Shown: one piece after another, positions 44,186 to 64,000 of the stretch
Layout of the letters: each line of letters starts with the position of its first letter
How positions within the stretch are numbered: the stretch's first letter is position 1
Assembly: GCA_038870975.1 (NCBI GenBank)
Contig: JAVZJD010000002.1
Coordinates: forward strand, 384,001 to 448,000
Source: Candidatus Bathyarchaeia archaeon
GTDB lineage: Archaea; Thermoproteota; CALKCG01; B24
Length of the DNA stretch: 64,000 bases
Direction of reading: 5' to 3'
Translations under genes and position numbers: made by a program
Notes under the pieces: model-generated
Told to the model about the DNA's origin: nothing
What the model saw: the letters and a program-made list of their open reading frames with translations, nothing else
The model's database searches: none

Positions 44186-45244
44186 ATGGGTTTTCTGAGG
44201 TTTCTACCAGTTTTATCTATAGCTGTTGTTTTCGCTTTAGCTGTTTCATGCGTTTATTCTGAGGGTTATGTTTACCGTGTTGACTCTATGAATTTTACGG
44301 TTTACTTTGACGGTGTTGTCGATGTGAAGGTTAAGCTTAGCGTGAATGAAACTAGTCTGTTTTTCACAGTAGGTTTGCCAGGTTCTCCTTTTTCAAACAT
44401 GTTTGTTTACGACTCCTCTGGTGTTCCTTTGGATTTCGACGTTGAGGGTGGGAATGTTACGGTTTACAGTTTCGGTGAAAGCCTTGTATATGTTGAATAT
44501 GAGACGCTTAATTTGACTTATAAGGAGGGTGTTTTATGGACTTTTAAGGTTGAATCCCCGGTAGTCTTCTACGTTATCCTGCCTTATAATGCTTCTATAA
44601 CTGGTTTTTCAGATATTCCGCTTGAAGTTACACTGCTTAAAGATGGTAGGATTCTGCTTAAAATGCCTAAGGGCTTACAGTACGTAAGCTACGTCATACC
44701 TCCAGGTGTAGCTGAATTTAGGTTGAAGGCTTTAAACGCTATTTCCAAAGCCCGAATCGCTATTGCAGATGCTAAAGCCGAGGGTAGGACTGAGGGTTTA
44801 GCGGATGCTGAAAGACTACTGGCGGAGGCTGAGGGGCTTTTCAATGCAGGCGACTATCGTGGTGCTGAGGCTAGGGCTAATCAGGCTTACGAGTCGGCTT
44901 TGAATGCTAAGAAGCCGTTGATCGGTGTTATCTTAGACTATATGCCTTATATCGTGGTGGCTACAGTTTTAGCGGTTGCTGTTGCAACCGTGCTGTTTTT
45001 AAGGCTTAGACGTGGGGGTGTTGCTAGGCTTTTCCGTGAAAACCCCTGGCTTGACGAAGATGAGAAGAACGTTTTAAAAGTTATATGGATTAAAGGAGGC
45101 GGTGCTTTCGAATCGGATATTAGGGATGCTTTAGACCTTCCCAAGACAACGGTTTGGAGGATTATTAAAAAGCTTGAAGAAAATGGGCTTGTCAAAGTCG
45201 AGAAAATCCGTGGGGAAAACTACGTTAAACTGGTCAAGCGTTAA
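44186..45244 (+). CDS. Membrane-anchored protein with C-terminal winged HTH
   Basis: Signal peptide, beta domain, TM helix, then DEKNVL...ESDIRDALDLPKTTVWRIIKKLEENGLV. Confidence 0.8.
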   Translation: MGFLRFLPVLSIAVVFALAVSCVYSEGYVYRVDSMNFTVYFDGVVDVKVKLSVNETSLFFTVGLPGSPFSNMFVYDSSGVPLDFDVEGGNVTVYSFGESLVYVEYETLNLTYKEGVLWTFKVESPVVFYVILPYNASITGFSDIPLEVTLLKDGRILLKMPKGLQYVSYVIPPGVAEFRLKALNAISKARIAIADAKAEGRTEGLADAERLLAEAEGLFNAGDYRGAEARANQAYESALNAKKPLIGVILDYMPYIVVATVLAVAVATVLFLRLRRGGVARLFRENPWLDEDEKNVLKVIWIKGGGAFESDIRDALDLPKTTVWRIIKKLEENGLVKVEKIRGENYVKLVKR

Positions 45245-45439: not shown

Positions 45440-46186
45440 TTGAGTGGTATGTTGACCGACGGCGGTGGTGATGTGGCTACTGAGTTGAAGACGCAACTTC
45501 TTAAATTGCTTAGAGAGGATGAAGAATTTAGGTATGCGGTGGCAGGTTTAATCGGTTTAGAGGATTTGAGGTCCTCTATGAAGTCTTTAACGGATGCCAT
45601 TGACAGATTGGCTGAACGGGTAGATAAGCTGGCTGAAGCCCAGAAGCTTACGGAAGATAGACTGAACAAGCTGACAGAACGAGTAGACAAGTTGACGGAA
45701 CAAGTAGATAAGCTGACAGAACGGGTAAATAGGTTGGCTGAGGCTCAATTGCGTACGGAGGAGCATGTAAAGCAATTGGCGGTTACGGTTTCAAACTTGG
45801 CTGGAGAGGTTGGTAGACTTTCTGATGTTATTGGATTCGGGCTGGAAGATGTTGCTAAGGTTGTCGTACCTGGTTGGTTGTATAGGCACGAGCGTATAGA
45901 AGTTGAGTTGGAGCGTAGGTTTGTATACGTTGACGGTGAATCGATTGAAGTGAACCTTTATGGTGATGGGAGGAGGAATGGTGAGGCTGTGATTGTCGTA
46001 GGTGAGTGTAAATCTAGGATTTACGAGAGAGAGGTTAGGGAGTTTGCTGAAAAACTGGAGAAGCTTGCTAAAGTCTTTCAAGGCAGGAGGATGTATACGT
46101 TTATGTTCGGTTTTCTGATACATCCTTCAGCTGAGGGGGAGGCGAGGGGGAGGGGGATAACGCTTATAGCCTCCTACATGCGTTGA
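45440..46186 (+). CDS. Coiled-coil heptad-repeat + PD-(D/E)XK-like protein (archaeal DUF3782-like)
   Basis: LREDEEFRYAVAGLIG N-terminus, LAERVDK/LTEQVDK heptads, G..LE, EVN, GECKS. Confidence 0.8.
   Translation: MSGMLTDGGGDVATELKTQLLKLLREDEEFRYAVAGLIGLEDLRSSMKSLTDAIDRLAERVDKLAEAQKLTEDRLNKLTERVDKLTEQVDKLTERVNRLAEAQLRTEEHVKQLAVTVSNLAGEVGRLSDVIGFGLEDVAKVVVPGWLYRHERIEVELERRFVYVDGESIEVNLYGDGRRNGEAVIVVGECKSRIYEREVREFAEKLEKLAKVFQGRRMYTFMFGFLIHPSAEGEARGRGITLIASYMR
45608..45770 (+). repeat. Degenerate 21-bp tandem coding repeats (heptads)
   Basis: ctgacagaacgagtagacaag / ttgacggaacaagtagataag / ctgacagaacgggtaaatagg. Confidence 0.7.
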
Positions 46187-46257: not shown

Positions 46258-46665
46258 CTACTCGCTCTTCCTCAGCTTTTCCTTAGGCTCCCAGGTGAAC
46301 CTCCATAGACCTCTCCCAAACGATTCAACTGCGATTTCCAATTCATCTGCAAGCTTATCGTTGATTAGAGGTTCTGTGGGTAGTGGGGAGACCACGATAT
46401 CGGCTAGAGCCTCCTTCGATTTAACGTCCTCCGTTAAAACGCTTACCCTCGCCGACCTTGGGTAGAACCAAGCCCTCAGAGGTCCACCCGCGGTTTCCAG
46501 AACTACTTCTGATGCGGCTTGAGGCGGCCAGAGGCCGAGTTTAACGGCTAAATCTATTGGAATAAGTAGTTGAGGCGTTGGTGCTTCATAGCCGCTGTTG
46601 AGGAGGGATACTGCTTCAACAGATCTACAGTCGATAGTGATCTTAAGTTTTAGTCTCACAGCCAT
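46258..46665 (-). CDS. Clan AA aspartyl-protease-like protein with NSG in place of DTG
   Basis: LLNSGYE..PQLLIP, LETAGG, EPLIND. Confidence 0.7.
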   Translation of the reverse strand: MAVRLKLKITIDCRSVEAVSLLNSGYEAPTPQLLIPIDLAVKLGLWPPQAASEVVLETAGGPLRAWFYPRSARVSVLTEDVKSKEALADIVVSPLPTEPLINDKLADELEIAVESFGRGLWRFTWEPKEKLRKSE

Positions 46666-46816
46666 GGGAGAGCACCTTAATTCTGCCTACGCGTCCGAAG
46701 CTTTTGAACGTAATCCTCCCCACGAATACTCCTCCACATACCTTCGAGTGAGTATCCAAGGTCTGAGGCTTTATACAGCCTACGTAAACCTTCTTACGAG
46801 CAGTCGATTCCGACAT
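46643..46816 (-). CDS. Possible 57-aa ORF overlapping the start of the protease-like gene
   Basis: My translation: MSESTARKKVYVGCIKPQ...HGCETKT; below the ORF-track cutoff; may be a remnant. Confidence 0.3.
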   Translation of the reverse strand: MSESTARKKVYVGCIKPQTLDTHSKVCGGVFVGRITFKSFGRVGRIKVLSHGCETKT

Positions 46817-46898
46817 GCTTTTACGAAATAGAGCTTACCAAAGTCGAATAAATACTTTTTGAGGCTTTGCTAAAAGCATGTTTATCCATAAGTTTAAA

Positions 46899-46923
46899 CT
46901 TTCAATTCTCTCTATAAGATTCC
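46899..46923 (-). repeat. Solitary CRISPR-repeat-like unit
   Basis: CTTTCAATTCTCTCT matches the first 15 nt of the array repeat, then ATAAGATTCC; minus strand ends ATTGAAAG. Confidence 0.65.
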
Positions 46924-46981
46924 ATATAGACTCGACAGCAATCTATAGTCACATACTAAGCAAATGAATGGAGCAGTGGCA

Positions 46982-47032
46982 CATTAACCGAAGACATTTT
47001 ATGACTTTAAGTTTTCTAAACTCTAAATGTTT
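46982..47032. repeat. Copy 1 of a 51-bp direct repeat
   Basis: 42/51 ungapped identity to 48304-48354; contains minus-strand TTAGAAAACTTAAAG promoter-like motif. Confidence 0.75.
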
Positions 47033-47121
47033 TAGAGAGATGTTTAATTATAGGAGAATTGAAGGGGAAATTTTAAACAACGTATTATGCGTAGTATGAA
47101 AAGCTTTTTAAATTCGTTTTA

Positions 47122-47367
47122 ATGTTTCCTAAGATGGAAATGAAGGAAACGGTGGATTATCAAAGTATAGTGGAGGAAAATTTCAAATTGTTAAGTGTAC
47201 TCGATGAGCTTGAGAAGGTCAGGCGCATCGTAATGGTTCAACTGGGGATCGTTGAAGATGTTTCTAGGTTAAAAGCCGCGTCGATATTTCAGTGGCTTTT
47301 CCGCCTATATGCTCGGAAAGTGGGAGAAGCTTACACCATTAAATCGGTGAAAGAAGCGATGAAGTGA
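47122..47367 (+). CDS. Small hypothetical protein, probable partner of downstream nucleotidyltransferase
   Basis: 81-aa ORF 4 bp upstream of the NTase gene. Confidence 0.55.
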   Translation: MFPKMEMKETVDYQSIVEENFKLLSVLDELEKVRRIVMVQLGIVEDVSRLKAASIFQWLFRLYARKVGEAYTIKSVKEAMK

Positions 47368-47371
47368 TGAT

Positions 47372-47998
47372 ATGGGTCTAATCGCTTATACAGTTAAGGT
47401 TGCGAGAATTTTCAATAGGTTAAATTTGAAATACGCGCTCGTAGGAGGGCTTGTATGTATATTGATGGGCATTAGGAGAATTACGGAAGATGCAGACTTC
47501 ATAGTTGAAGTTAAGTCCTTCAGCGATTTAGAAAAATTATTTTTTGGATTGAAAGAAGAAGGCTTCGATGTGAGTTTAGAAGAAGTAAAAGATGCATATG
47601 CAAATAAGAGTCATTTTACAATTTTAGTCGACGGCTTTAGGCTTGACTTTAAATTTGCATCCTCAACCCTCGACTTTGAAACCCTGAAAAGAGCTGTTGA
47701 AGTCGAAATCGAAGGGGAGAAAGTGAAAATTGCAAGGCTTGAAGAAAACATAGCGGCGAAAATACTAGTCTTGTCTTCGTTAAAAGATGTCGAAGACGCC
47801 TTATGGCTAATGATCAATCACCATGATAAAATAGACTGGAGTCGGCTTCAACTCCTTCTCAACGGAGATCCGAAGAAGATGATAGAGAACATACTGCTGG
47901 AAATTGAGAGAGAGTTTCAGGACGATGTAGTAGTTTTAAAAAAGTTGTATGAACTTAAATCGCTGTTAAAGCCTCTTTCACCCTCTCCCAATCTTTAA
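47372..47998 (+). CDS. Nucleotidyltransferase (DUF6036/AbiEii-like)
   Basis: YALVGG...RITEDADF, E.NIAAK, KDVEDA. Confidence 0.78.
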   Translation: MGLIAYTVKVARIFNRLNLKYALVGGLVCILMGIRRITEDADFIVEVKSFSDLEKLFFGLKEEGFDVSLEEVKDAYANKSHFTILVDGFRLDFKFASSTLDFETLKRAVEVEIEGEKVKIARLEENIAAKILVLSSLKDVEDALWLMINHHDKIDWSRLQLLLNGDPKKMIENILLEIEREFQDDVVVLKKLYELKSLLKPLSPSPNL

Positions 47999-48303: not shown

Positions 48304-48354
48304 CATTAACTGAGGACGCATTATGACTTTAAGCTTTCTAAAGTCCAAACGTTT
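48304..48354. repeat. Copy 2 of the 51-bp direct repeat
   Basis: 42/51 identity to 46982-47032. Confidence 0.75.
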
Positions 48355-48460: not shown

Positions 48461-48886
48461 CTAAAGAACTTCAACCGTGTATCCGTTAAGCTTTAAAGCA
48501 AGCTTGTTGAGGAGCTCCCTACCAGCTATGACTTCGTAGGGTAGGTCCTCAGGAAGCATGGGAACAAGCACGTTTAGCTCATCCAACTCTAATACAGGGG
48601 TTCCGGACTCTGAGACCACAAAGCCCTTGACTTTGAATACTTCACACTCGATTTCACGCCCTCCAATAGCGTAAAGCAACTCATATTCAGTCGGTTTAAT
48701 GCCTTCGAGAAGTAATGCAAGCTCGTCATTAGCGTAAAGTGCTCCGTCGAAGCCAGTGTCGATCAAGCATGGGCCACGAAGTCTACCGTTATCAGTCAAA
48801 AGCTCAAGCCAAAGCACGGGTATAGCTGGTAGCTTCTTACCTTTGGAGTCGTAACCATCTTCGACATAAGGATAGCTAACCCTCAA
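48461..48886 (-). CDS. Clan AA (retropepsin-like) aspartyl protease
   Basis: CLIDTGFDG catalytic motif and IAGRELLNKL. Confidence 0.8.
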   Translation of the reverse strand: MRVSYPYVEDGYDSKGKKLPAIPVLWLELLTDNGRLRGPCLIDTGFDGALYANDELALLLEGIKPTEYELLYAIGGREIECEVFKVKGFVVSESGTPVLELDELNVLVPMLPEDLPYEVIAGRELLNKLALKLNGYTVEVL

Positions 48887-50228: not shown

Positions 50229-50258
50229 GTCACATCACACGTATTGTTCTTGATACTT

Positions 50259-50645
50259 ATGAAGAGGGCTTTCTCCTATAAAGATCTTCTCGACAATGCC
50301 ACTAGGATCGCCGTTCAAGCTAAGTTGGATGGTTTGACCAAGACTCAAATTGAGAACATCATCGGGTCTCTATATATGGTTGAGGACGCTAGGGATGCTT
50401 TGCTCATTACCCAATTGTTCGCTCATAGACAGGCTGAGAGATTGGGCAGAGGTCGTAAAACGATGTCTATGATTAGTAAGTTTTTAAACGAAATTTACGT
50501 TAAAAATGGGGATAGGTGTCTCGCAAGCGAATTCCTCGGTTTGATCAAATGGGTTTTTGAGTGCATTGAGGAGGTAAGGTTGCCGATGATCGATATCAAC
50601 ACTCTCACGTTCGACGCATTAATGAATATTCTGAGGGGAAGGTAA
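50259..50645 (+). CDS. cas11: Type III CRISPR small subunit (Cas11/Csm2-like)
   Basis: Small helical protein first in the RAMP operon; TKTQIENII, RQAERLG, FLGLIKWVFE. Confidence 0.7.
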   Translation: MKRAFSYKDLLDNATRIAVQAKLDGLTKTQIENIIGSLYMVEDARDALLITQLFAHRQAERLGRGRKTMSMISKFLNEIYVKNGDRCLASEFLGLIKWVFECIEEVRLPMIDINTLTFDALMNILRGR

Positions 50646-51347
50646 ATGCCTGATTACAGGGATTTTGATAGACTAAATACCATTATTCGCATTGAGGGGA
50701 TCCTAGTAAATGAAACTCCGTTAAGGATTGGTACTGGTAAGGAACCCCCTTTGGGCGCTCCAGTAGATGTAGCAGTTTACAGGGTTAATGGCATTCCATG
50801 TATACCCGGGTCTAGTTTGAAAGGTCTATTTAGAAACTACGTCGAAATGGCCTCAACTTCCAAGGGCGTTAAAGTGCACGAACCTTGGAACAAAGATGCC
50901 ATCGAAGATGAGGCCAAGCGCGGGGATTTCTGTCCAGTTTGTGGAATTTTCGGTAGTACGGAGTTGGCTAGCCATATCAGAGTTTACGATGCGTTCCCGA
51001 AGGATAATAGATTTTATAGTTTTCAGAAGACTGGCACAAGCATCGATAGAGAATTCGGGAGCGTGAGAGCAGGTTCGCTATTTACAGAGGAACTAATCAC
51101 GCCGATGACTGAGTGGACATTTAAAATGGATGTAATAAACATTGACCTATACTCTGAGCAGGAAGTTGAAGACAAACGAAAGGAATTACTTAAATCGCTG
51201 TTGACAACGCTTACTACAATTGGTTTAAGTATTGGCTCTAGGAAGTCCGTCGGCTACGGTCTCATTAAGTTGAAAGAAGCTAAGTGGCGTAAGTACAAAT
51301 TCGTTGAGGGCGAACTCAAATTAGTCGATAAAGGTGATGCGATTTGA
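50646..51347 (+). CDS. cas7: Cas7-group RAMP (Csm3/Csx7-like)
   Basis: TPLRIGTG, VD (catalytic Asp position), IPGSSLKG, CPVCGIFGS, IGSRKSVGYG. Confidence 0.92.
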   Translation: MPDYRDFDRLNTIIRIEGILVNETPLRIGTGKEPPLGAPVDVAVYRVNGIPCIPGSSLKGLFRNYVEMASTSKGVKVHEPWNKDAIEDEAKRGDFCPVCGIFGSTELASHIRVYDAFPKDNRFYSFQKTGTSIDREFGSVRAGSLFTEELITPMTEWTFKMDVINIDLYSEQEVEDKRKELLKSLLTTLTTIGLSIGSRKSVGYGLIKLKEAKWRKYKFVEGELKLVDKGDAI

Positions 51348-52297
51348 AAGTTCCTCTATGGACTTCGTCCCTGATAAATCTAAGGGAGTCCATATTCAGA
51401 GGTTACATCGAGAATATTAGTCCATTGAGAATTGGCGCTGGTAAGGAGCCTCCCTTGAGTTCTCTTGTTGACTTAGCGATTATAAAAATTAGGTATGGTG
51501 GCTATGAAATCCCGTACATACCTGGGTCTAGTTTGAAGGGTTTGTTCAGGAGTCAAGCCGGAAAGATGGCTACGTCCCTGGGTTTGAGTGTATGTAATGG
51601 GCTCGCCAAGGACAACTGCGTGGACGTCAAAAGAGTCACCATCAGAGGTAGAGAGTACGTTTTGAGGGATTTAATCGATGAGTGTATGCGAGATAGACGT
51701 TCTTCAGAAGCCATGGAGTATTTCTTTAATAACGCATGCATTATCTGTAGGATATTTGGCTCGATTATGTATAGGAGCAAAGTTATTTTCTCAGACGCAT
51801 ATCCCATCGATGAAGACGGCAATTTACTTCCATTTAAATTAGGCTCTAGAACTGGAATCGCAATAGATAGGAGGACCGGGGCTGTGGTTAGGGGGGCATT
51901 ATACGAAGTAGAGTACATTGAGCCCGGATGCAGGTTTAAGTTTGAGGTCAGATGCCACAATTTACCGAATTACGCCCTCGGGTTGTTATCGTCTATAATT
52001 AGAATGATAGATAGTGGTGAAATCAAAATTGGGGGATTTACGTCTAGAGGCTATGGCTCTGTGAAAATCAAAAAATTAGAGGCGTTCGTGAAGAGTTTTG
52101 GCCCAGGTAAGGAGAATAAAGTTTTATCATCCCTCGAACAAAACATCGACGAAGGGGTCGACGTATCGGATATCTCCGAATTTAAAGATGGATTGTTGTA
52201 CTTCTCAGAAAATAACGTTTGGAAATTGATCGATAGGTTAGAGGGGGTTTGGTATGGTGCGACGAGTAGAATTAAGAGTCGTGAGAGAAAAGCCTAG
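51344..52297 (+). CDS. cas7: Cas7-group RAMP (Csx7/SSO1426-like) with Cys-rich insert
   Basis: SPLRIGAG, IPGSSLKGLFRS, CIICRIFGS, RTGIAIDR, IGGFTSRGYG. Confidence 0.92.
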   Translation: MKVPLWTSSLINLRESIFRGYIENISPLRIGAGKEPPLSSLVDLAIIKIRYGGYEIPYIPGSSLKGLFRSQAGKMATSLGLSVCNGLAKDNCVDVKRVTIRGREYVLRDLIDECMRDRRSSEAMEYFFNNACIICRIFGSIMYRSKVIFSDAYPIDEDGNLLPFKLGSRTGIAIDRRTGAVVRGALYEVEYIEPGCRFKFEVRCHNLPNYALGLLSSIIRMIDSGEIKIGGFTSRGYGSVKIKKLEAFVKSFGPGKENKVLSSLEQNIDEGVDVSDISEFKDGLLYFSENNVWKLIDRLEGVWYGATSRIKSRERKA

Positions 52298-53219
52298 AGA
52301 CAGAAGCTCGTTCAGAGATTTATGCGGGTTTCTCGATGTTAGTATAGTTGTCGACGATGGTTCGTATTTACACGTCGGTGCTGGTAGGGAGGTGTTTGAA
52401 GCAGACGTTGAAAAACTTAAGGAGTTATACGTAAAAAGGGGAATTATCGATATAAGCCTCCTGAGGGGCACGGAGTATCAAGATTTTGCATCTACATCGA
52501 GAGGTGTCGTCATACCTGGGTCATCGGTCAAGGGCAACGTCAGAGCTAAATTGGAGTTAAGCTTTCACAATTTCCAAGGTAGTGTTAGGTCTTGCTTCAT
52601 TAAAGCTGGCATCATAAGGGGAATCTCCATCGGTACTAGCGGATGGAGGCATCAGAGGGTTTGGAGTGAAACGGTATTCGAGGACAGAGGTTTTCCATGC
52701 GACTTCACGAGGATCGGCAGCGTTTGCCTTTTGTGCGACTTATTTGGAACATCTGGATTAAAGGGTTTAATCGATTTCAGCGACTTCGTATGCCCCGACG
52801 TCAAACTAGAGGCCCTCAATCTGCCCTATGGAATTAAAGTCCGCGCGGCTCCCCCGGGGACTACTTTCAACGGAAGGATAGATTTCACGAATTTGAAGGA
52901 TTACGAATTGGGTTTACTCCTCCTCGGCATGGGAATCATGAATAGTAGGATTGGTAGGAGCGTTATTCTGGGTAGATTTAAGTATAGGAGTTTAATTGGA
53001 GGAAAAAGGTTTGGCAGAGTCAGGTACAGGATTAATGGACTCATGTTAAACAGATTTTCAACTGAGCTTTCAGTAGGGTCCTTGCACATAAGGCCTGAAA
53101 CGACAATTTTGGATGAAGGGATCGACGAACTCTGCAAGCTCCTAGTCGACTCCTCATCGGAGCATTTTAAAAATGAAATCAAAATAGTAGACGAGGTTGG
53201 AATTCTTGATGGACTTTAA
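52254..53219 (+). CDS. cas7: Cas7-group RAMP
   Basis: YLHVGAG, IPGSSVKG, CLLCDLFG, ELGLLL, LGRFKY...FGRV. Confidence 0.85.
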   Translation: MVRRVELRVVREKPRDRSSFRDLCGFLDVSIVVDDGSYLHVGAGREVFEADVEKLKELYVKRGIIDISLLRGTEYQDFASTSRGVVIPGSSVKGNVRAKLELSFHNFQGSVRSCFIKAGIIRGISIGTSGWRHQRVWSETVFEDRGFPCDFTRIGSVCLLCDLFGTSGLKGLIDFSDFVCPDVKLEALNLPYGIKVRAAPPGTTFNGRIDFTNLKDYELGLLLLGMGIMNSRIGRSVILGRFKYRSLIGGKRFGRVRYRINGLMLNRFSTELSVGSLHIRPETTILDEGIDELCKLLVDSSSEHFKNEIKIVDEVGILDGL

Positions 53220-56022
53220 AGGATTTAAGTTCGAAGAACCATATCCTATATTCAAAGCTTACGTCATCCCTTACAGAGACGAAAAAACTATAATTGAGTA
53301 CTGTAGGAGGGTAAAGGCCGAAGACGTAGAGTTATTCAAAGAGGTCCTCGAGGGTTTAAAGAGGTTCTTATCGAAAATGCTTAATTTGAACAACGTTAAG
53401 TCGTTTGATGAAGTCAGAAGGCTTGAGTTGATCGCAGACTTAATACCACTGTACTTTAGAATTCCACTGCTGAGAGAAGTATTACCATCAACTATGCCGA
53501 GCCCATTGAAGACATATTTATTGTACAGGACTCACTATGTCCAATCATCCCACGAAAAAGCAGTGGTGTTTGATGTTGATCCAGTTGACTTCATCGAGTG
53601 GGTCTACGAGAAAAAAGAACGTTTAAATTTCGTTGAAGAGATATCCAGCGTTTTAAGCGATCCAAGTCTATCTAATAAAATTGAGAAGTCGTGGTTCATT
53701 TTTCCATCTGATACTAGACCGGGCTTTAATACGTCAGGTTTAATAACGCATTTGCTTGTTACTTCAGCCATAGCTTGGAGTCTAGGCGTGAATAAGGAGT
53801 TAAATAGGCGCGATATCGCAATACTTAGGTTGGCCGCGCTTTTGCACGACGTTGGAAAACCATTCAACTACAGGATGCACGTTGAACTTTCAAAAAGCGT
53901 TGCTGAAGTCCTATTGAAGGGCTTTATCTCGAGCGAAATATTGGACGATGTAGTTAGCATTATAAGCAATCATCATAAACCTGAGTCTGTGGATATATGT
54001 CCTAAACTTAGGAAAATTTTAGAAATTTTAAATGTGGCAGATCAAAGGGCTTCGACCATCGATAGGATAAGACACGTTGTTGAAAGTTACATTAAAAGCG
54101 ACATATTGGATATCTCTGAAAAGTTGGGCTTAAACTACGACCACGCTTTCGAAGTTGGAGCCAAGGGCTGGGACTTTTGGTTCAAGGCTTCTGAGAAGAT
54201 TGAGGAGTTGAATGTAAAGTTTCTTGACCGCTTGCGTAGTGCCACCGATGGTTTTAAATCTCAGTTAAAGCCCATTGGAGAATTTAAAGCAGTAGATTAT
54301 AGGGATACCTCTATTGGTGTAATCGACGTCGCAGGCATACAAAACTACATATCTAGGGCTCAAGAGGTTAAGGTCGTAAGCGCCGCGAGCTTGTTAATAG
54401 ATGGAGTTGTAACGTCGTATATTCCATTGTACATGCAACTGATGGTCGAGCGATCTAATGTCTGGGTTCCGTATGAAGCATTCTTGTACACCGCTGGCGG
54501 AGTCGTCGAATTAATCTTCCCATCGTTATTGAGCTCTAAGTTCGAGGAGCTTATTGGGAAATCGTTAAACGAGGTTCTCTCAAAGTGTAAATTACGCGTC
54601 AATTTTGCACACGTGTATGTAAGTAACGACGTTTACTCCATGGTGAAGAATTTGGCGAACGAACTTCACTTGAGGAAAAACACGGTTTCTGAGGATGTTG
54701 TGACCATCGATAGGATTAGTGGCGTTGTAGGCTATGATAATTTGTGTGAGTTATGTTACATCGATGAATATGTTGAATCGTTGCGTACAGCTGAAGGCGT
54801 AAAGAGGCTCTGCAAAACGTGTAAGTCATTGTACGAGTTGGGCGAGAGAATAAGCTTTAGAAAGAGGTTTGAAGAGGCCAACTTTACGGTTTTGGGCGAT
54901 ACTTTCAATATTAAGGAAGTGTTTGGAGTAAATTGGGACTTCGTGAGCAAGTACGTCGTTGAATTGATCTCTGGTCACGACGGGGGCGAACTCAGGGAAT
55001 TAGAAGAGGGGCGCGTCAAGAGGAGGAATGTCGCTGTGGTCAAAGTTGATGGTAACCTCATGGGACCTTTTATGGCAACGTCGATTTCACTGACGGACAT
55101 GTACGAAAGGAGCGCGAGAATAGATATTGCTTTGAAGGATGCCTTTAGCAAAGCTCTGTCGGTAATATATGAAGGTGTAAATAAAACTACAGGGGATAAA
55201 GGGGAGGCCGCCAAGTATTGCGCATCGGTGCTACTGGGAACTCTGTACATTGGTGGGGATGACTGCCTGGTCGTAATGCCTTCATGGGCTTCGCCGATTT
55301 TCGCGTGGATCATCGGCAATGAATTTAGATTGAACATGGGTAATGCCAGAGGTTTGGGCATAGGCGTTGCGGTGGGTTCGGCAAAAGCCAATCTGTGGAG
55401 CTTAATCTCCGCCGCGGACAAACTGATGAATGGGGCCAAGGGGTTCACCAGGGATAGACCCGAGTATAGTGCACTGATGTACGACGTTTCTGAGAATGTA
55501 TCGTTAAACGGGTTAATCGTCGAAGAGAGGTTGAGGTATCTTGAGGGTGAGGGTGTTACAGTTCAACCATTCATATTGGCATCAGATGGAGATGCATTTA
55601 TGGATTACGTTAAGTCGATCTTCGACGCATCAAATTACCATGAGTTTGCGGAGAAGTGCTATCTCGCGTCAAGGTTCTCCGAACGTTTAGATGGAGGATT
55701 AAAGACGAGGGCACGCGAGGTTCAAGAGTGGATGAAGAAAATCAGGGCCAACATCATGGAGTGTATTAATAGAGTGAATAGTTTATTCATAATTAGCGAG
55801 GGGCCGCCGATATTGAAGTGGTTCCTAGTCAAATTCTACGCTCAAAGGCAACTTAGTAGATTGAACGACCCGAAGAACAAGAAGGCGTATGGCGTCGTTT
55901 TTGAGCTAGGTCCAAAGAAGAGCTTGGCAGACTTTCTAAAGGGCGACGTAAGACGTATAGACAATTCATCTTATTCTGACGCCGACAGAATGATTAAAAT
56001 TGTCGGGGGTGGCGTCATTTGA
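53197..56022 (+). CDS. cas10: Cas10 large subunit with HD nuclease and Palm/cyclase domains
   Basis: PSDTRPG, LLHDVGK, NHH, DVAGIQNYI, CELC/CKTC Zn finger, VDGNLMG, YIGGDD. Confidence 0.95.
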   Translation: MEFLMDFKGFKFEEPYPIFKAYVIPYRDEKTIIEYCRRVKAEDVELFKEVLEGLKRFLSKMLNLNNVKSFDEVRRLELIADLIPLYFRIPLLREVLPSTMPSPLKTYLLYRTHYVQSSHEKAVVFDVDPVDFIEWVYEKKERLNFVEEISSVLSDPSLSNKIEKSWFIFPSDTRPGFNTSGLITHLLVTSAIAWSLGVNKELNRRDIAILRLAALLHDVGKPFNYRMHVELSKSVAEVLLKGFISSEILDDVVSIISNHHKPESVDICPKLRKILEILNVADQRASTIDRIRHVVESYIKSDILDISEKLGLNYDHAFEVGAKGWDFWFKASEKIEELNVKFLDRLRSATDGFKSQLKPIGEFKAVDYRDTSIGVIDVAGIQNYISRAQEVKVVSAASLLIDGVVTSYIPLYMQLMVERSNVWVPYEAFLYTAGGVVELIFPSLLSSKFEELIGKSLNEVLSKCKLRVNFAHVYVSNDVYSMVKNLANELHLRKNTVSEDVVTIDRISGVVGYDNLCELCYIDEYVESLRTAEGVKRLCKTCKSLYELGERISFRKRFEEANFTVLGDTFNIKEVFGVNWDFVSKYVVELISGHDGGELRELEEGRVKRRNVAVVKVDGNLMGPFMATSISLTDMYERSARIDIALKDAFSKALSVIYEGVNKTTGDKGEAAKYCASVLLGTLYIGGDDCLVVMPSWASPIFAWIIGNEFRLNMGNARGLGIGVAVGSAKANLWSLISAADKLMNGAKGFTRDRPEYSALMYDVSENVSLNGLIVEERLRYLEGEGVTVQPFILASDGDAFMDYVKSIFDASNYHEFAEKCYLASRFSERLDGGLKTRAREVQEWMKKIRANIMECINRVNSLFIISEGPPILKWFLVKFYAQRQLSRLNDPKNKKAYGVVFELGPKKSLADFLKGDVRRIDNSSYSDADRMIKIVGGGVI

Positions 56023-56696
56023 GTAGAGTTAAGTTTAAAGTCAGAGTAAAGCCCGTAGGCTTATTGTCCATTGGCTCCATATACTCATCGTTCGCGAGCT
56101 CTGATGTAGCATTTGCTAGAAAACCCTCCATGGAGGGTGGCAAGAGTGTGTACAAGCATTATATCCCGGGGTCCAGCTTTAAGGGGGCTTTGAGGTCCTC
56201 TACCTGTAGGATCGCTGAAGTCTTTGGGTTTAAGAGTTGTAGTGAGGTTGATGTCGGGATGATCGAAAAAGCTCACAGTAGAAATGGCATATGCGATGTA
56301 TGTAGACTCTTCGGTTACCCAAAGTCTAACACTCCAAGTGTACTGAGCGTTTCAGACTTCGAACTTCAAGGCTACGCTAAGCCCTACGTAATTACCGGGA
56401 TAAGAATTGAAGACGAGAGCGGTAAAGTCGCTGAAGGCGCTCTATTTAGCACGGAAAAGTTATACGGATCCGAGTTCCTAGGTGAAATATCGTTGACCAC
56501 CGACGACGTAAATTTAATTGGGCTTACGTTGCTTTCGCTCTCTGAATTGAGGTTGGATTGTTTTGGTAGGCGTTCGCAAATCGACTTGAAGATAGAGGAT
56601 ACTGAAGGACTTGAACGGCTTTTGAAGGGTTCGAAGTGGATCTCATTGTTGGATGAATTGAAGGAGTGGTTGTACGATGAGATTTTGCAAGATTGA
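56019..56696 (+). CDS. cas7: Cas7-group RAMP
   Basis: IPGSSFKGALRS, CDVCRLFG, GIRI...EGALF..E. Confidence 0.88.
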   Translation: MSRVKFKVRVKPVGLLSIGSIYSSFASSDVAFARKPSMEGGKSVYKHYIPGSSFKGALRSSTCRIAEVFGFKSCSEVDVGMIEKAHSRNGICDVCRLFGYPKSNTPSVLSVSDFELQGYAKPYVITGIRIEDESGKVAEGALFSTEKLYGSEFLGEISLTTDDVNLIGLTLLSLSELRLDCFGRRSQIDLKIEDTEGLERLLKGSKWISLLDELKEWLYDEILQD

Positions 56697-57813
56697 AATT
56701 AAATTAAATTCCCCGACGATTCTTCCAAAGAAGAGGGTTGAGAGGGGCTACAAGGGTTGCTTAGATTACATTCCCTCAACTACGTTAAGGGGCTCGCTTT
56801 TAACATCCCTATACTTGAATGGATACGTGAAACTCGATAAAGTCAAGGAGTTAGCTAGGAGTTTTGGAGTCTTTGCTTCAAACGCTTATCCAGTTATAGA
56901 GAATAAAGAGTCCCAACCATCACATCCATTCATGTATGAGTGCAAAGTCCCGCACGGGAAAAAGTACGAAAGGGTGAACTTCATAAATGAAGTTGTTGAT
57001 AAGCTTAGATCCCATGAGAAAACCCTATTCAAATTCGAGTGTAGTAAGGGTCATTCGGCATTAAGTTACGTGCATCCAAAACCGGTGATATTGCTAAATT
57101 ACGAAGGAGAAATGTTTAAAGTAGCGTCAGTAAGGGCTCAGTCTACGATATCCACTGCCATAAGTAAGCGTAGAGCTTCAAGCCAGAGTGGAATGTTATA
57201 CGAATACGACTTCATGATAGAGGGACAGAGGTTTTGGAGTTACATCGGCATTTCCGACGAATTGAGTAAATACGTTGAGAAGGGGTTGGAACTTAAGATT
57301 GGAAGGGGCGTATCCAGAGGATTTGGGAGTTCGCGCATAGAGAATGTTGAGGAGATATCGTTAAGTGAGCGTAGAGAGAGGATCGAATCAGAGGTCGATT
57401 TGCGTGGCAAAACTGTCTTATTTTACGCGCAATCACCGTTATTGGGTTTCGACGGTTTCGTAAATTACACTCCGTATCCAAAGAACATAGAGTTGAACAG
57501 CGTACTAAAAGTATGTGGGTTCAACGTCTATAATGCCGGGAGTATAACCGTAAGTGAAGTTTACGCTAAAACTAGAGCTCTACACGGTGGTTGGGATATG
57601 GATATGAACGTTAGAAGACCAGTCTTTACGGGCGTAGCTTCCGAAGGAGCTATTGCAGTTGGGCGTGTAAACGTTAAACAAGACACCGTCACGGCATTGG
57701 CTCTACTATCCATAGTCGGTTACCCAATTAAGGTAGATGGATATGTCTTCACGGGCTTAAACATTCTAACGCCGTTGCAAATCCAACCAATAAGTGGGGG
57801 TGGAAGAAATTGA
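56677..57813 (+). CDS. cas5: Cas5-group RAMP (Csx10/Csm4-like)
   Basis: DYIPSTTLRGSL, SNAYP, IGRGVSRGFG, GWD. Confidence 0.8.
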   Translation: MRFCKIEIKLNSPTILPKKRVERGYKGCLDYIPSTTLRGSLLTSLYLNGYVKLDKVKELARSFGVFASNAYPVIENKESQPSHPFMYECKVPHGKKYERVNFINEVVDKLRSHEKTLFKFECSKGHSALSYVHPKPVILLNYEGEMFKVASVRAQSTISTAISKRRASSQSGMLYEYDFMIEGQRFWSYIGISDELSKYVEKGLELKIGRGVSRGFGSSRIENVEEISLSERRERIESEVDLRGKTVLFYAQSPLLGFDGFVNYTPYPKNIELNSVLKVCGFNVYNAGSITVSEVYAKTRALHGGWDMDMNVRRPVFTGVASEGAIAVGRVNVKQDTVTALALLSIVGYPIKVDGYVFTGLNILTPLQIQPISGGGRN

Positions 57814-58736
57814 TTTTGCAACTCGACTCGGTGTGCAACAAAATAGTCGGGCTATTGACTTTTGGCGTCGAAACACCGATACACGTAGGTGCGGGTGGCG
57901 TTGAAGTAAGGAGGAGCTTCTTAAAGGTTGAAGACCGCTTAGTGATACCTTCATCGACTTGGAAGGGCGCTTTTAGATCAATGTCAGAGAGGATAGCGAA
58001 GAACATGAAGTTCAACGGAGTATCATCACTATCGGTTAAATTCTACCGCGAGACTACAAGGGGGATAAGTTATTCACCCGCAAACTATAAAGATGCCGAA
58101 TTCGTAAACCTAAGGAACGAATTGATTAGCGTACACAAAGGTTTAAAACCAGAAGCGTTGGGGATCAGTAGAGGAGACGTAGACATAGCGATACGTGAAT
58201 TAGGGTTTTCCGAAGAAGTAGAGAAGTTGAACGGTTACGACGAAACCACGTGGAACTGGTTTACGGAGGCACTCTTAGCAGTAAACTGCCCAATAGGGAG
58301 ACTGTATGGTAATAACTACGTGGCGGCAAAAGTCAGGTTCGTGGATACGGTCATCAAAGGAAGGACTAGTGAGAGGGCTGGAATTGGAATAAATAGGAGG
58401 GCGTTGAAAGTAGAAGAAGAGTTCCTCTACTTTATGGAAGCCCTAAGCGAAAGCGACGTAAAACTGATGTTCATAGCGTGCAATCTGAAACCCGGAGAAG
58501 GGGATTCAAAATTATTTGCATCGACATTACAGTACGTGAGAGAGATGGGGATGTCGATCGGAGGGTCGAAAAGCAGGGGATTGGGACATCTAACGATAAA
58601 AGGAGCAAAGATATTCATAATTGACTTAACTACAGGAAGCCTAGATGATAAAATGCTAAGGATAGTAAATCCATTTAAACACGTACCGCCGACTGACCTT
58701 GAGGGGCTGATAAAGTGGCTACGAGGTTGGAACTAA
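57810..58736 (+). CDS. cas7: Cas7-group RAMP
   Basis: TPIHVGAG, IPSSTWKGAFRS, CPIGRLYG, IGGSKSRGLG. Confidence 0.88.
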   Translation: MILQLDSVCNKIVGLLTFGVETPIHVGAGGVEVRRSFLKVEDRLVIPSSTWKGAFRSMSERIAKNMKFNGVSSLSVKFYRETTRGISYSPANYKDAEFVNLRNELISVHKGLKPEALGISRGDVDIAIRELGFSEEVEKLNGYDETTWNWFTEALLAVNCPIGRLYGNNYVAAKVRFVDTVIKGRTSERAGIGINRRALKVEEEFLYFMEALSESDVKLMFIACNLKPGEGDSKLFASTLQYVREMGMSIGGSKSRGLGHLTIKGAKIFIIDLTTGSLDDKMLRIVNPFKHVPPTDLEGLIKWLRGWN

Positions 58737-60043
58737 ATCCTTACGTACTCTTCATAGATACGTTTTTGGACTGCATATACATAGAAGCTGGTATATGCGA
58801 CGAAGTGAATAAAAGAGTTGCACGTCACATATTAGGTGACTATTTAGCCAGTATTTACGAAGAAGTTAGCAAAGGTATAACTCCTGAAGAGTTTAAGATA
58901 ATCAAAAATATAGGATTTGACGAAAAACGTGTAATATATTACGATTTGCTCGATGGAATAGTCAAAGATCTTTCGACTCGCCTTGTCAATCTGATAGAAG
59001 AATTAAGAGCGTTCGAGAAAATTGAAATTGAAAGAACAACTCTTAAGGAATTATCTCACATATTAGAAAACTCTTTCAAAAATAAAATTAAAGAAATATT
59101 TAAGAAACTGGCCAAGTTTGAGGAAGAATCTAATGAAGTTATGAAAAAATCAAAAGCGAATTTTTCAGCCGTCCAGATTCTAAAGTTCTTGTTTAATGAA
59201 GCTTATATTTATTCTCGTCAGTATGATGTAGTATTATGCGCAAGCAAAGATAATATTGGAGGAAGACCGTTATATACTTTCTACTTGGCATTTTCAAATG
59301 AAATCTTACATCAAAATATTGATGAAAGGAGTATCATTGAACCTCTATTAAAAGTGAATTTATCTGATATAAAATATAAAGAATATAAAGAAGATGAATA
59401 TTATGCTAAAGATTTTTTAAAGGCCGCAAAGTTACTTTTAAGCAAGGATAAAGAAAAAATTAAGGATATGACTAATCTAATAATGAAATCTATCTCAAAA
59501 GATGGTAAAGTTGTAGAGGCTATTGAGAAAGTAATTAGTGTTGTGAAACAAGTAGTTAGTAAAATGGATAGTAATGAAAAAATGTTAGATTTAATTTTCT
59601 TAGATTTTTTAATAAATTACCTATTTAAAGGGCATCTTATTTTTGAAGTACTAATATACACCAGGCTCATTAAAAATGGAATTTTGGCTTTACCCAAAGT
59701 TGAAATATATGAAATTTCGGAGGAAGATAGGAAAGATTTAAAAGGAAATGTGCAAAGAGCGGAGCAGATTTGTGAGTGTGACGCCGTGGCTTTATTTGGT
59801 CCTGAAGATAACATGAAGTTGATGTTGATTGAGGTCACTACTAGAGATTTCCTGGACAATAAGGTAGGAAAAATAAAAGAATCTATTGATGTGCTTAAAA
59901 GTTGTGTAGGTGATAGACTGGATGTTTATGGGCTGATTATAGCTGATAAGCGATGCGACGTAACACCACCTCTTTACTTGATGACATTTGAAGAATTTTT
60001 AAAGGCGTCTAGTCACGACCTTTTAAATTTAAGAGGATCTTAA
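58715..60043 (+). CDS. Uncharacterised type III accessory protein: helical N-terminus + C-terminal PD-(D/E)XK-like domain
   Basis: Overlaps the last cas7; GHLIFE...ECDAV...LIEVTT; markedly AT-rich. Confidence 0.6.
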   Translation: MATRLELNPYVLFIDTFLDCIYIEAGICDEVNKRVARHILGDYLASIYEEVSKGITPEEFKIIKNIGFDEKRVIYYDLLDGIVKDLSTRLVNLIEELRAFEKIEIERTTLKELSHILENSFKNKIKEIFKKLAKFEEESNEVMKKSKANFSAVQILKFLFNEAYIYSRQYDVVLCASKDNIGGRPLYTFYLAFSNEILHQNIDERSIIEPLLKVNLSDIKYKEYKEDEYYAKDFLKAAKLLLSKDKEKIKDMTNLIMKSISKDGKVVEAIEKVISVVKQVVSKMDSNEKMLDLIFLDFLINYLFKGHLIFEVLIYTRLIKNGILALPKVEIYEISEEDRKDLKGNVQRAEQICECDAVALFGPEDNMKLMLIEVTTRDFLDNKVGKIKESIDVLKSCVGDRLDVYGLIIADKRCDVTPPLYLMTFEEFLKASSHDLLNLRGS

Positions 60044-61543: not shown

Positions 61544-63998
61544 CTTTCAATTCTCTCTTTAGATGCAACTCAAGTTATATTGTACCGTACGTGCATAAAT
61601 GTTTTTCATTCTTTCAATTCTCTCTTTAGATGCAACTAGATATTCCCGCTGACGACCGTGACGCCGTTATACTTTCAATTCTCTCTTTAGATGCAACAGT
61701 AGTAATATGCGTCGCAATAGTAGCGATATACCACTACCTTTCAATTCTCTCTTTAGATGCAACGGACGTATATTCCCCGTCTTCTCCGATTCCTTGGCTT
61801 TTAATAGCTCTTTCAATTCTCTCTTTAGATGCAACATCGTCTAACAGTCCAACCTACCTCCACGCTGTTGATGTCTTTCAATTCTCTCTTTAGATGCAAC
61901 ATAGTTTGGCTTGTAGGAAGTATGAGGGGATAGTGTGCACTTTCAATTCTCTCTTTAGATGCAACATATTTCTCCGAAACCCCATAGCCGAACGGTCTGA
62001 CGAACTTTCAATTCTCTCTTTAGATGCAACAGAATTCAGCGTTCATGGAAGATATGACTTGAAGCTCTTTCAATTCTCTCTTTAGATGCAACAGCCTCAG
62101 CTCCAATAGTCGTAGCCTCGGCACTAGCATACGTGAGGACTTTCAATTCTCTCTTTAGATGCAACAATTGATACCTTCCACCCATTACCCATGGAATGCT
62201 TGGGTCTTTCAATTCTCTCTTTAGATGCAACGACTAAGAACGTGGATATACGCTTCTACCCAGACGACTTTCAATTCTCTCTTTAGATGCAACGGTAGGT
62301 CGGTGAGCCGCTGGAGTCCCTAGCCTCAACGTCTTTCAATTCTCTCTTTAGATGCAACACCTCCGCCTAGAGATGGCTATGGATAGGGTTGCAGATAGCT
62401 TTCAATTCTCTCTTTAGATGCAACAATTTACAAAAGAAGTACGCTGATAATTCCACGATTGTAAGCTTTCAATTCTCTCTTTAGATGCAACTGAGAAAGG
62501 TTGCGGAAAAGGCATGGAAAAACGGCGGTGTAACTTTCAATTCTCTCTTTAGATGCAACAGGCTATTGAAAAATTGAGTGATAAGATAGATAAGTTAGCC
62601 TTTCAATTCTCTCTTTAGATGCAACTGGAGTAGAAGTGAACAAGCTTGGCTTCGAAATCTACAACGCCTTTCAATTCTCTCTTTAGATGCAACATGGGCA
62701 AGACTGGTCTACCAGTGCTGGCGTTCATTAGAGCTTTCAATTCTCTCTTTAGATGCAACCTTGGAACACAATAAGGAAAATAGAATACGTTGGTAGCGCT
62801 TTCAATTCTCTCTTTAGATGCAACGGCGTCTGGTGCGTCATCTGAACCGTCTTGCCGTTCACATTCCTTTCAATTCTCTCTTTAGATGCAACGACATCGC
62901 AAATGACGAACGCTTGAAGGCTAAGACGCGTGTCTTTCAATTCTCTCTTTAGATGCAACGGCTTCACCGCCGTCGCGCTTCACCTTGAAGTGTATGTCTT
63001 TCAATTCTCTCTTTAGATGCAACTTATGAGCCTCAACTTCGTTGCGAACGCCCCCTCTATCTTTCAATTCTCTCTTTAGATGCAACTTGAAAAATATGGA
63101 AAATATGAAAAAGGTCTTCTCAGCTTCTTTCAATTCTCTCTTTAGATGCAACGGATCCAAATGCCGTAGGTTTCGAGCTGGGCGGTGAAATCATCTTTCA
63201 ATTCTCTCTTTAGATGCAACTTGATGTTCAGGGGGAGGCGGCATGTCGGAGTCTGAGACTTTCAATTCTCTCTTTAGATGCAACAGCAGAGCCCTGAGCC
63301 TCTCTCGACCCTCGCTCGGAGTCCCTTTCAATTCTCTCTTTAGATGCAACCGCGGACGTGGTTGATGCTTGGCAGTCGGTCAGGTGCTGCTTTCAATTCT
63401 CTCTTTAGATGCAACAACGGCGGACAAGACGGTGACCTACCACCTCTGGTGCACTTTCAATTCTCTCTTTAGATGCAACGACGTTGTAACACATGCTGTG
63501 AGGATGCTCCTAGAGATGCTTTCAATTCTCTCTTTAGATGCAACCTGGCTCAACCTAGACACGCTCAGCATATCGGGTCTTCCTTTCAATTCTCTCTTTA
63601 GATGCAACGAAGCCAGAGCCCTACGAGCCGAAGGGGTGGCTTGGAGTCTTTCAATTCTCTCTTTAGATGCAACTGCAAATCGATTGACGCACTGCTTTAT
63701 AATAAGCACCTTTCAATTCTCTCTTTAGATGCAACAACCAGGTCTGCGAGAGCATCCACGGTTCTGCCGGTTCTCACTTTCAATTCTCTCTTTAGATGCA
63801 ACAAACGGTATCCAGTACGTGAATATCTTGCTCTTACGCTCTTTCAATTCTCTCTTTAGATGCAACGAAGCAAACGAAGCTAACAAGCTCAACGCAAGGC
63901 TCTACATCTTTCAATTCTCTCTTTAGATGCAACTTAGATGAAGCAGGCGAGGAGGTTGTCTTCCAATGAGTGCTTTCAATTCTCTCTTTAGATGCAAC
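61544..63998 (-). CRISPR. CRISPR array, 38 repeats/37 complete spacers visible, continues past window end
   Basis: Identical 26-bp CTTTCAATTCTCTCTTTAGATGCAAC, spacers ~35-47 nt; the reverse complement ends in ATTGAAAG (8-nt handle), so minus-strand transcription and a leader beyond 64000 are inferred. Confidence 0.98.
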
Positions 63999-64000
63999 TT

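Follow-up and report, generated by a model that had tools for sequence, protein, structure and literature searches.

We found that a single 24-nt CRISPR repeat, here designated S1, stands alone between two small toxin-antitoxin-like operons in a Bathyarchaeia genome. With a probability of roughly 55%, we consider it to be the youngest in a series of progressively decayed orphan repeats that remained at the junctions of shuffled cassettes. We observed that S1 is a solitary copy of a CRISPR repeat, that it lies at a junction, that it is absent from the orthologous operons, and that it has no target in the searches described below. According to our explanation, S1 would be an orphan copy of the repeat of a distant CRISPR family (family 2), left where small toxin-antitoxin (TA) or defence cassettes were deleted, inserted, or swapped. 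The window, by which we mean the whole stretch of DNA analysed (64,000 nt), is C2:384001-448000 of a genome (G000) of 1.85 Mb in 2 contigs, C1 and C2 (41.5% GC). The features of the window are listed in Table 1.

Table 1. Positions of S1, its neighbours, and the nearby CRISPR-Cas features (numbering of the window)
Feature	Position	Strand	Remarks
S1, solitary 24-nt CRISPR repeat GAATCTTATAGAGAGAATTGAAAG	46899..46922	-	23/24 to family-2 repeat; handle ATTGAAAG intact at 46906..46899
S1', decayed orphan repeat	47041..47064	+	inverted relative to S1, 118 nt from it; edit distance 5; 14-nt deletion
Spacer-length stretch after S1 (40 nt)	46859..46898	-	starts TTTAAAC (TATA-like); ends where orthologous-operon homology starts
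Stretch upstream of S1 (59 nt)	46923..46981	-	without homologue in 40 relatives; unlike CRISPR leaders
Conserved proximal promoter-like block AAAAAGTATTTATTC	46848..46862	-	AAAGTATATATTC in G016/G015; from upstream-region alignment
57-aa ORF, first gene of the operon downstream of S1	46643..46816	-	no Pfam family
135-aa protein, predicted retropepsin fold	46258..46665	-	NSG replaces catalytic DTG; no Pfam family
Inverted-repeat arms (16 nt, 88%)	46813..46828 / 46866-46881		first arm covers the 57-aa ORF ATG; partner in the spacer-like stretch
51-nt element, copy 1 (TLTEDIL, then stop)	46982..47032	+	last ~8 codons of a vapC/PIN gene plus downstream DNA
51-nt element, copy 2 (PLTEDAL, then stop)	48304..48354	+	where G004 has an intact vapBC by an RHH + DTG-retropepsin operon
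Divergent operon, 81-aa ORF + DUF2204 nucleotidyltransferase	47122..47998	+	from ORF and family search
Type III-D effector operon (Csx7 paralogues, Cas10, Csx10)	50244..60043	+	followed by a Crn1/Csx14-like gene
Family-1 CRISPR array, repeat GTTGCATCTAAAGAGAGAATTGAAAG	61544..64000	-	trailer end at 61544; 72 repeats in the genome, 38 in the window

The preliminary description of this DNA had reported 15 contiguous nucleotides, including the whole ATTGAAAG handle, that match in the same orientation an array 14.6 kb away. That match is exact: the shared 15-mer CTTTCAATTCTCTCT (46899-46913, plus strand) is the first 15 nt of all 38 array repeats from 61544, and the two sites are co-oriented and 14,645 nt apart. 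The extent of the unit had, however, been under-described, as it covers 24 nt and belongs to the other repeat family. S1 and the family-2 repeat GAATCTCATAGAGAGAATTGAAAG are identical at 23 of 24 positions over the full length, the 8-nt 3' handle included, and the edit distance of S1 is 1 to family 2 versus 5 to the nearby family 1. Judged by its sequence, S1 is thus a full-length repeat of the distant family 2 and not a 15-nt piece of family 1; the two families have exactly the 15-nt 3' part in common.

A chance match was considered as the origin of S1 and was ruled out: with up to two mismatches allowed, the 15-mer has 39 matches in the window versus 0.48 expected, the genome composition predicts 0.006 copies of it per genome, and the identity extends to 23/24 positions. 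The Rfam model CRISPR-DR45 gave a sub-threshold match on exactly the 24 nt of S1, and nothing in the window reached the Rfam gathering threshold. A 19/26 match to the family-1 repeat was seen at 41625-41650 (minus strand), within the gene of a 647-aa esterase; as such matches occur at background frequency, we attribute it to chance.

S1 is indeed solitary, as had been described. No second unit within an edit distance of 5 was found on its strand between 46300 and 47500, and the search for periodic decayed repeats around it gave only matches at edit distance 8, at background frequency. Whereas a CRISPR array or mini-array has at least two direct repeats at spacer distance, the only partner of S1 is the decayed and inverted S1'. 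Over the 340-nt intergenic region that contains S1, three further assemblies from this species (Logan SRR27170999 and the NCBI MAGs GCA_038882875.1 and GCA_038881855.1) show 100% identity, by which an assembly artefact was ruled out. The assemblies carrying the locus are at least 99.9% identical overall over 6.4 kb; thus, S1 is real, but its identity among them is uninformative on selection.

Two repeat families are present in this genome. Family 1 has a 26-nt repeat and two divergent arrays on C2, one with 72 repeats, which is the array in the window, and the other with 71. Family 2, with a 24-nt repeat, forms an array of 22 repeats and an inverted mini-array of 2 repeats at about 907 kb on C1 (C1:906999-908600, L014:3999-5601); the array is on the plus strand, and the mini-array is on the minus strand, 122 nt away. 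The flanks of the family-2 array are without cas genes, with genes for a UDP-glucose dehydrogenase and a sugar nucleotidyltransferase on one side and for GH53 on the other. A single recognisable cas6 exists in the genome (C2:465098-465637), and the cas-less family-2 array must depend on this distant Cas6. Because all the positions common to both families and the 8-nt handle are intact in S1, RNA reading through S1 would probably be cut by the same Cas6. The product would carry the AUUGAAAG handle and then UUUAAACUUAUGG and, in our explanation, would be a non-targeting crRNA-like by-product. The type III-D locus that had been noticed beside S1 was confirmed by its Csx7 paralogues, Cas10, and Csx10; S1 lies 3.3 kb from this operon and outside it.

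Orphan repeats form a series within this one genome. S1 has 1 mismatch in 24 positions, S2 (C1:509203) has 2 in 24 (22/24; handle ATTAAAAG), S3 (C1:508574) has 5 in 24 (19/24; handle ATTGAAAC), and the family-1-like S4 (C2:650714) has 3 in 26 (23/26; handle ATTGAAGG); the handle is intact in S1 only. S3 and S2 are decayed family-2 orphans located 629 nt apart (C1:508574-509226, L012:3075-3727), and the interval between them holds the motif GGGGGAGGGG, which is also found upstream of the G016 orthologue of the operon that begins with the 57-aa ORF. S4 (C2:650714-650739, L013:3215-3240) adjoins the gene of a winged-helix regulator, and no conservation of this orphan was found in the relatives.

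The remaining unit, S1', was found by an edit-distance scan of the genome. As there are about 35 matches of like quality genome-wide, we estimate p at ~0.004-0.01 for one decayed match as close to S1 as S1' is. S1' aligns with S4, flanks included, minus 14 nt (z = 6.9, 0/300 shuffles), and on this alignment S1' is a copy of S4 with a 14-nt deletion and not a copy of S1. As both flanks accompany it, a repeat that was solitary already has thus been copied to another locus, some 220 kb distant. A decayed repeat beside copy 2 of the 51-nt element was not significant (z = 0.5).

Comparison with related genomes points to a local origin of such units. In the sister species of the genus, both the array repeat, GAATCTCATAAAGAGAATTGAAAG, and the orphan units have A at position 11, whereas S1 has G11, the form of its own species' arrays. 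As the orphans carry the position-11 base of their own host, orphan units appear to arise locally from host arrays, and for the same reason we infer a local origin of S1. The single change in S1, C7 to T, has exactly one occurrence elsewhere among 185,579 species genomes, namely in the Aigarchaeota MAG SKYB24, where a family-2 array finishes in decayed repeats on its trailer side and the variant is the last good repeat before them. It was not found as an array repeat in 16 relatives from the class, and the exact repeat-flank junction of S1 was not found in JGI metagenome contigs. The terminal repeat of the G005 array ends in GAAGG, as do S4, S1', and the orphans of G001, G002, and G003. In the C7-to-T change of S1 and in this ending of other orphans, the units resemble degenerate trailer-end repeats; unlike these, S1 has no array, leader, or trailer left at its site, and its flanks match none.

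S1 sits in a 123-nt junction (46859-46981) between the conserved block of the downstream operon and a vapC stump. The 40-nt gap after S1 equals the mean length of the 161 spacers in the genome (range 35-53), and S1 may have come as a repeat with about one spacer length of DNA, either from an array end or as filler copied in a rearrangement. The stretch downstream of S1 showed no homology to the mini-array trailer, the terminal spacer of SKYB24, or the 161 spacers; the best spacer match is a 12-nt identity, AAACTTATGGAT (46884-46895), to one family-1 spacer. This spacer lies near the leader end of array A1a (C2:450056), and the match is probably a chance event (p ~0.02-0.05 by our estimate). 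The upstream flank of S1 gave nothing beyond shuffles when compared with the family-1 and family-2 leaders of this genome and of G006 and G007. A leader relic was rejected as well: the 118-nt interval between S1 and S1' is close in length to the 122 nt that separate the two family-2 arrays, but the sequences of the two intervals are not similar.

The other side of the junction can be traced to a TA gene. The intact vapC of G004 ends in DPLTEDTLRL and a stop codon inside the 51-nt element (L007:622-680); thus, the element is a vapC stump, present twice, and nothing of the rest of vapC was found in this genome beyond the two 51-nt stumps. The stumps bracket a cassette of the 81-aa ORF, the DUF2204 nucleotidyltransferase, and a VapB-like gene, and look like duplicated insertion junctions. 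They belong to an island of shuffled small cassettes at about 42.9-50 kb, which has housekeeping genes to its left. We rejected a MITE or other multi-copy element with S1 and S1' as terminal inverted repeats, as the corresponding 211-nt element has no other copy and only its 51-nt core occurs twice. The neighbouring genes include one for a 248-aa protein (45440-46186, plus strand) with 21-nt (7-aa) tandem repeats at 45602-45742, a coiled coil (..KLTERVDKL..), and then a C-terminal domain; this gene adjoins that of a membrane and winged-helix protein at 44186-45244.

The sequences of two related species, G001 and G003, suggest that a cassette was recently exchanged along with its orphan repeat. 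They have an identical orphan repeat, GAATCTTATAAAGAGAATTGAAGG, 13 nt from tRNA-Thr. The repeat ends a tract of about 1.3 kb (G001:C41:9567-10868, L031/L036; G003:C22, L032/L037) that is almost entirely 100% identical between the two (one 200-nt window is 90% identical), against a syntenic background of 88-93%. The tract contains a PBECR2-like toxin-type pair, the solitary repeat, and the 3' part of tRNA-Thr(GGT). If the tract was recently exchanged, orphan repeats would move together with small cassettes. A more far-reaching proposal, which we regard as improbable, is that the orphan repeats of this lineage travel with cassettes and act as Cas6-cut sites coupling expression to CRISPR status, or as integron-like recombination anchors, with S1 as an active example.

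The same solitary repeat by tRNA-Thr, in a recently exchanged tract, would also fit an RNA anti-CRISPR-like decoy of the Racr type, carried on an integrated mobile element and titrating Cas6 or subunits of the effector. Racrs occur as solitary repeats and imitate the CRISPR repeats of the host (PMC10651486), and S1 is likewise a solitary repeat resembling a host CRISPR repeat. However, Racrs are encoded by viruses or plasmids, whereas S1 is chromosomal and lacks mobile-element hallmarks. Neither repeat form has a match in 2.9 million viral contigs; the island at 42.9-50 kb has no integrase, transposase, or att-like boundary, with housekeeping genes on its left; and the G001/G003 region is one of chromosomal synteny. 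Solitary repeat units of viral type reside on a virus, plasmid, or integrated element, and nothing of this kind was seen for S1. We consider a decoy very unlikely. The analogy with solitary-repeat anti-CRISPRs drawn in the preliminary description is not supported; no virus among these contigs carries the S1 unit.

S1 is co-oriented with the operon of the 57-aa and 135-aa genes and lies 83 nt upstream of the ATG of the 57-aa ORF. The operon had been called protease-like, in agreement with the predicted structure of the 135-aa product (AF2 pLDDT 77.6), which matches HIV-1 protease in Foldseek (E 2e-5, TM ~0.7 on the target); according to this model, the product has a retropepsin fold. All four compared orthologues have NSG instead of DTG. 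The family is widespread in thermophilic archaea: it has 263 homologues at E <= 1e-5, with identities of 65-88% for the best 120, and outside the species the nearest relative shows 88% identity. The window contains two stand-alone genes of retropepsin type, with a small ORF ahead of each (46258-46665 and 48461-48886, both on the minus strand); the second encodes 141 aa, follows an RHH gene, and keeps DTG.

No repeat was found within about 1.5 kb of flanks at the orthologous 57-aa/135-aa operons of G016, G015, G002, and G005, in which the S1 locus as a whole is not syntenic. Homology by blastn with the operons of G016 and G015 ends at 46858, 40 nt downstream of S1, and the corresponding upstream block of G016 does not occur as a repeat there. 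The conserved promoter-like block AAAGTAT(A/T)TATTCG...GGTAAGC is located downstream of S1, ahead of the ATG of the 57-aa ORF by about 40 nt; thus, the normal mRNA of the operon need not contain S1. Conservation in related genomes, raised as a question in the preliminary description, was seen only in assemblies that are at least 99.9% identical, and S1 is absent from the four orthologous operons.

These observations bear on the possibility that S1 is a functional solitary repeat, which we consider unlikely, though less so than the other alternatives. A transcript from an upstream promoter, for example one in the 51-nt element about 85 nt upstream, would be cut by Cas6 at S1, 8 nt before the 3' end of the repeat. 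The cut would either give a crRNA-like RNA loaded into III-D or type I complexes or sever a long 5' UTR; the inverted repeat in the 5' UTR would otherwise mask the start of the 57-aa ORF, and expression of the retropepsin-like operon would then be tied to CRISPR status. Such a role would be compatible with the intact handle and intact positions common to both families, with a single Cas6 that must serve both families, including the family-2 array without cas neighbours, and with the co-orientation of S1 and the operon at 83 nt from the ATG, which one arm of the inverted repeat covers. S1' and S2 are likewise upstream of and co-oriented with TA-like operons, S2 being 128 nt upstream of a HEPN and nucleotidyltransferase TA pair. 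Regulatory crRNA-like RNAs from solitary units have been documented (bioRxiv 10.1101/2024.12.27.630466; 10.1101/2023.03.03.530964), and the second of these studies reports that repeat-like sequences are over-represented beside type III operons.

However, no partial target of the 36-40 nt after S1 was found in the genome with or without seed rules. In the whole genome, the best match to the 36 nt after S1 has 11/36 mismatches, compared with 11-13 in the shuffled null, so that the search for partial targets put forward in the preliminary description gave nothing above that null. A seed search ignoring positions 6, 12, and 18 gave scattered matches, none of them near S1 or cas genes, and neither a PAM-flanked site nor a small RNA toxin gene was found at S1. 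The inverted repeat provides no more than 11 uninterrupted base pairs, located centrally in the would-be guide, and the fold of the RNA from S1 to the start of the 57-aa ORF is unremarkable (z = -0.82 versus shuffles). The conserved promoter of the operon is downstream of S1, the orthologues are repeat-free, the handles of the other orphan units are mutated, and conservation is confined to near-identical strains. The proposed coupling of the CreTA/CreR kind is therefore not upheld. CreTA has two degenerate repeats and a small RNA toxin inside a type I cas operon, whereas S1 is a single repeat with protein genes as neighbours; in addition, no target was found, the orthologous operons lack the repeat, and their conserved promoter lies downstream of the S1 position.

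S1 might also act at the DNA level, with the purine-rich GAAAG and TTTAAAC forming a BRE/TATA promoter or with S1 and S1' serving as operators at which a DNA-binding protein would control the two divergent operons. The conserved proximal promoter has the same grammar, AAAG and then a T/A-rich box (AAAG+TAT(A/T)TAT). In addition, S1 and S1' are inverted and 118 nt apart, TTTAAAC follows each, and each is 40-60 nt upstream of the promoter region of a divergent operon. A 23/24 match to a CRISPR repeat, however, far exceeds what a BRE needs, the orthologous operons work without S1, and the descent of S1' from S4 makes the symmetry of the pair look accidental. The promoter scan covered sigma-70-type promoters only and is uninformative on archaeal promoters. 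We regard such a cis element as quite doubtful. The evidence agrees better with the caveat of the preliminary description, according to which the unit could have remained from a lost array or could read as a BRE/TATA element, than with coupling of the CreTA kind.

A catalogue of standalone repeat-like sequences in and around CRISPR-cas loci reports that they are over-represented on either side of type III operons (Shmakov et al. 2023, bioRxiv 10.1101/2023.03.03.530964 / PMC10120712). S1 is like these units in being a single sequence of at least 16 matching nucleotides outside an array, in a long intergenic region, with TA cargo by a type III operon. The candidate regulators in that study, however, are conserved across related loci, are usually two-repeat mini-arrays, and carry a spacer with partial complementarity to the promoter of a cas or cargo gene, whereas S1 is single and occurs in near-identical strains only, and no target was detected for it. 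Some SRUs do consist of one repeat and yield a crlRNA whose 3' end is free (bioRxiv 10.1101/2024.12.27.630466), and S1, which keeps the 5' handle beside toxin and defence genes, is similar to the SRU crlRNA and to CreA of CreTA (bioRxiv 10.1101/2024.12.27.630466; PMC8501985). SRUs and CreA have an 11-16-bp PAM-flanked match to the regulated promoter, are inside type I cas operons, and act through Cascade; unlike these, S1 has no such match, PAM-flanked site, or small RNA toxin gene and is 3.3 kb outside a type III-D operon. S1 is thus without the features that mark the regulatory subset of standalone repeats (10.1101/2024.12.27.630466; PMC8501985).

We therefore favour an orphan relic, now situated between the conserved operon block and the vapC stump, with no dedicated regulatory target and presumably no function. 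Some observations point the other way. The 23/24 match with a perfect handle could reflect selection instead of youth, and the neutrality of S1 is not measurable, since the only carriers of the locus are at least 99.9% identical. The co-orientation of S1, S1', and S2 with TA-like operons and the inverted repeat at the ATG would suit a cis-regulatory role. In addition, the sequences on both sides of S1 are unlike all spacers, leaders, and trailers now present; thus, no donor array was found.

Our finding indicates that a repeat search with the neighbouring array alone can misassign units such as S1. Most regulatory repeat-like RNAs described to date come from type I systems. Should S1 be processed and have a function, it would represent a regulator with one repeat that is located outside a cas operon, next to a type III-D locus and upstream of an inactive-retropepsin operon, and would offer direct access to the way in which archaea couple TA-like cargo to CRISPR status. 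If it is no more than a relic, S1 would serve as a marker of array fragments scattered into cassette-shuffling islands beside cas genes in this poorly sampled lineage of hot-spring archaea.
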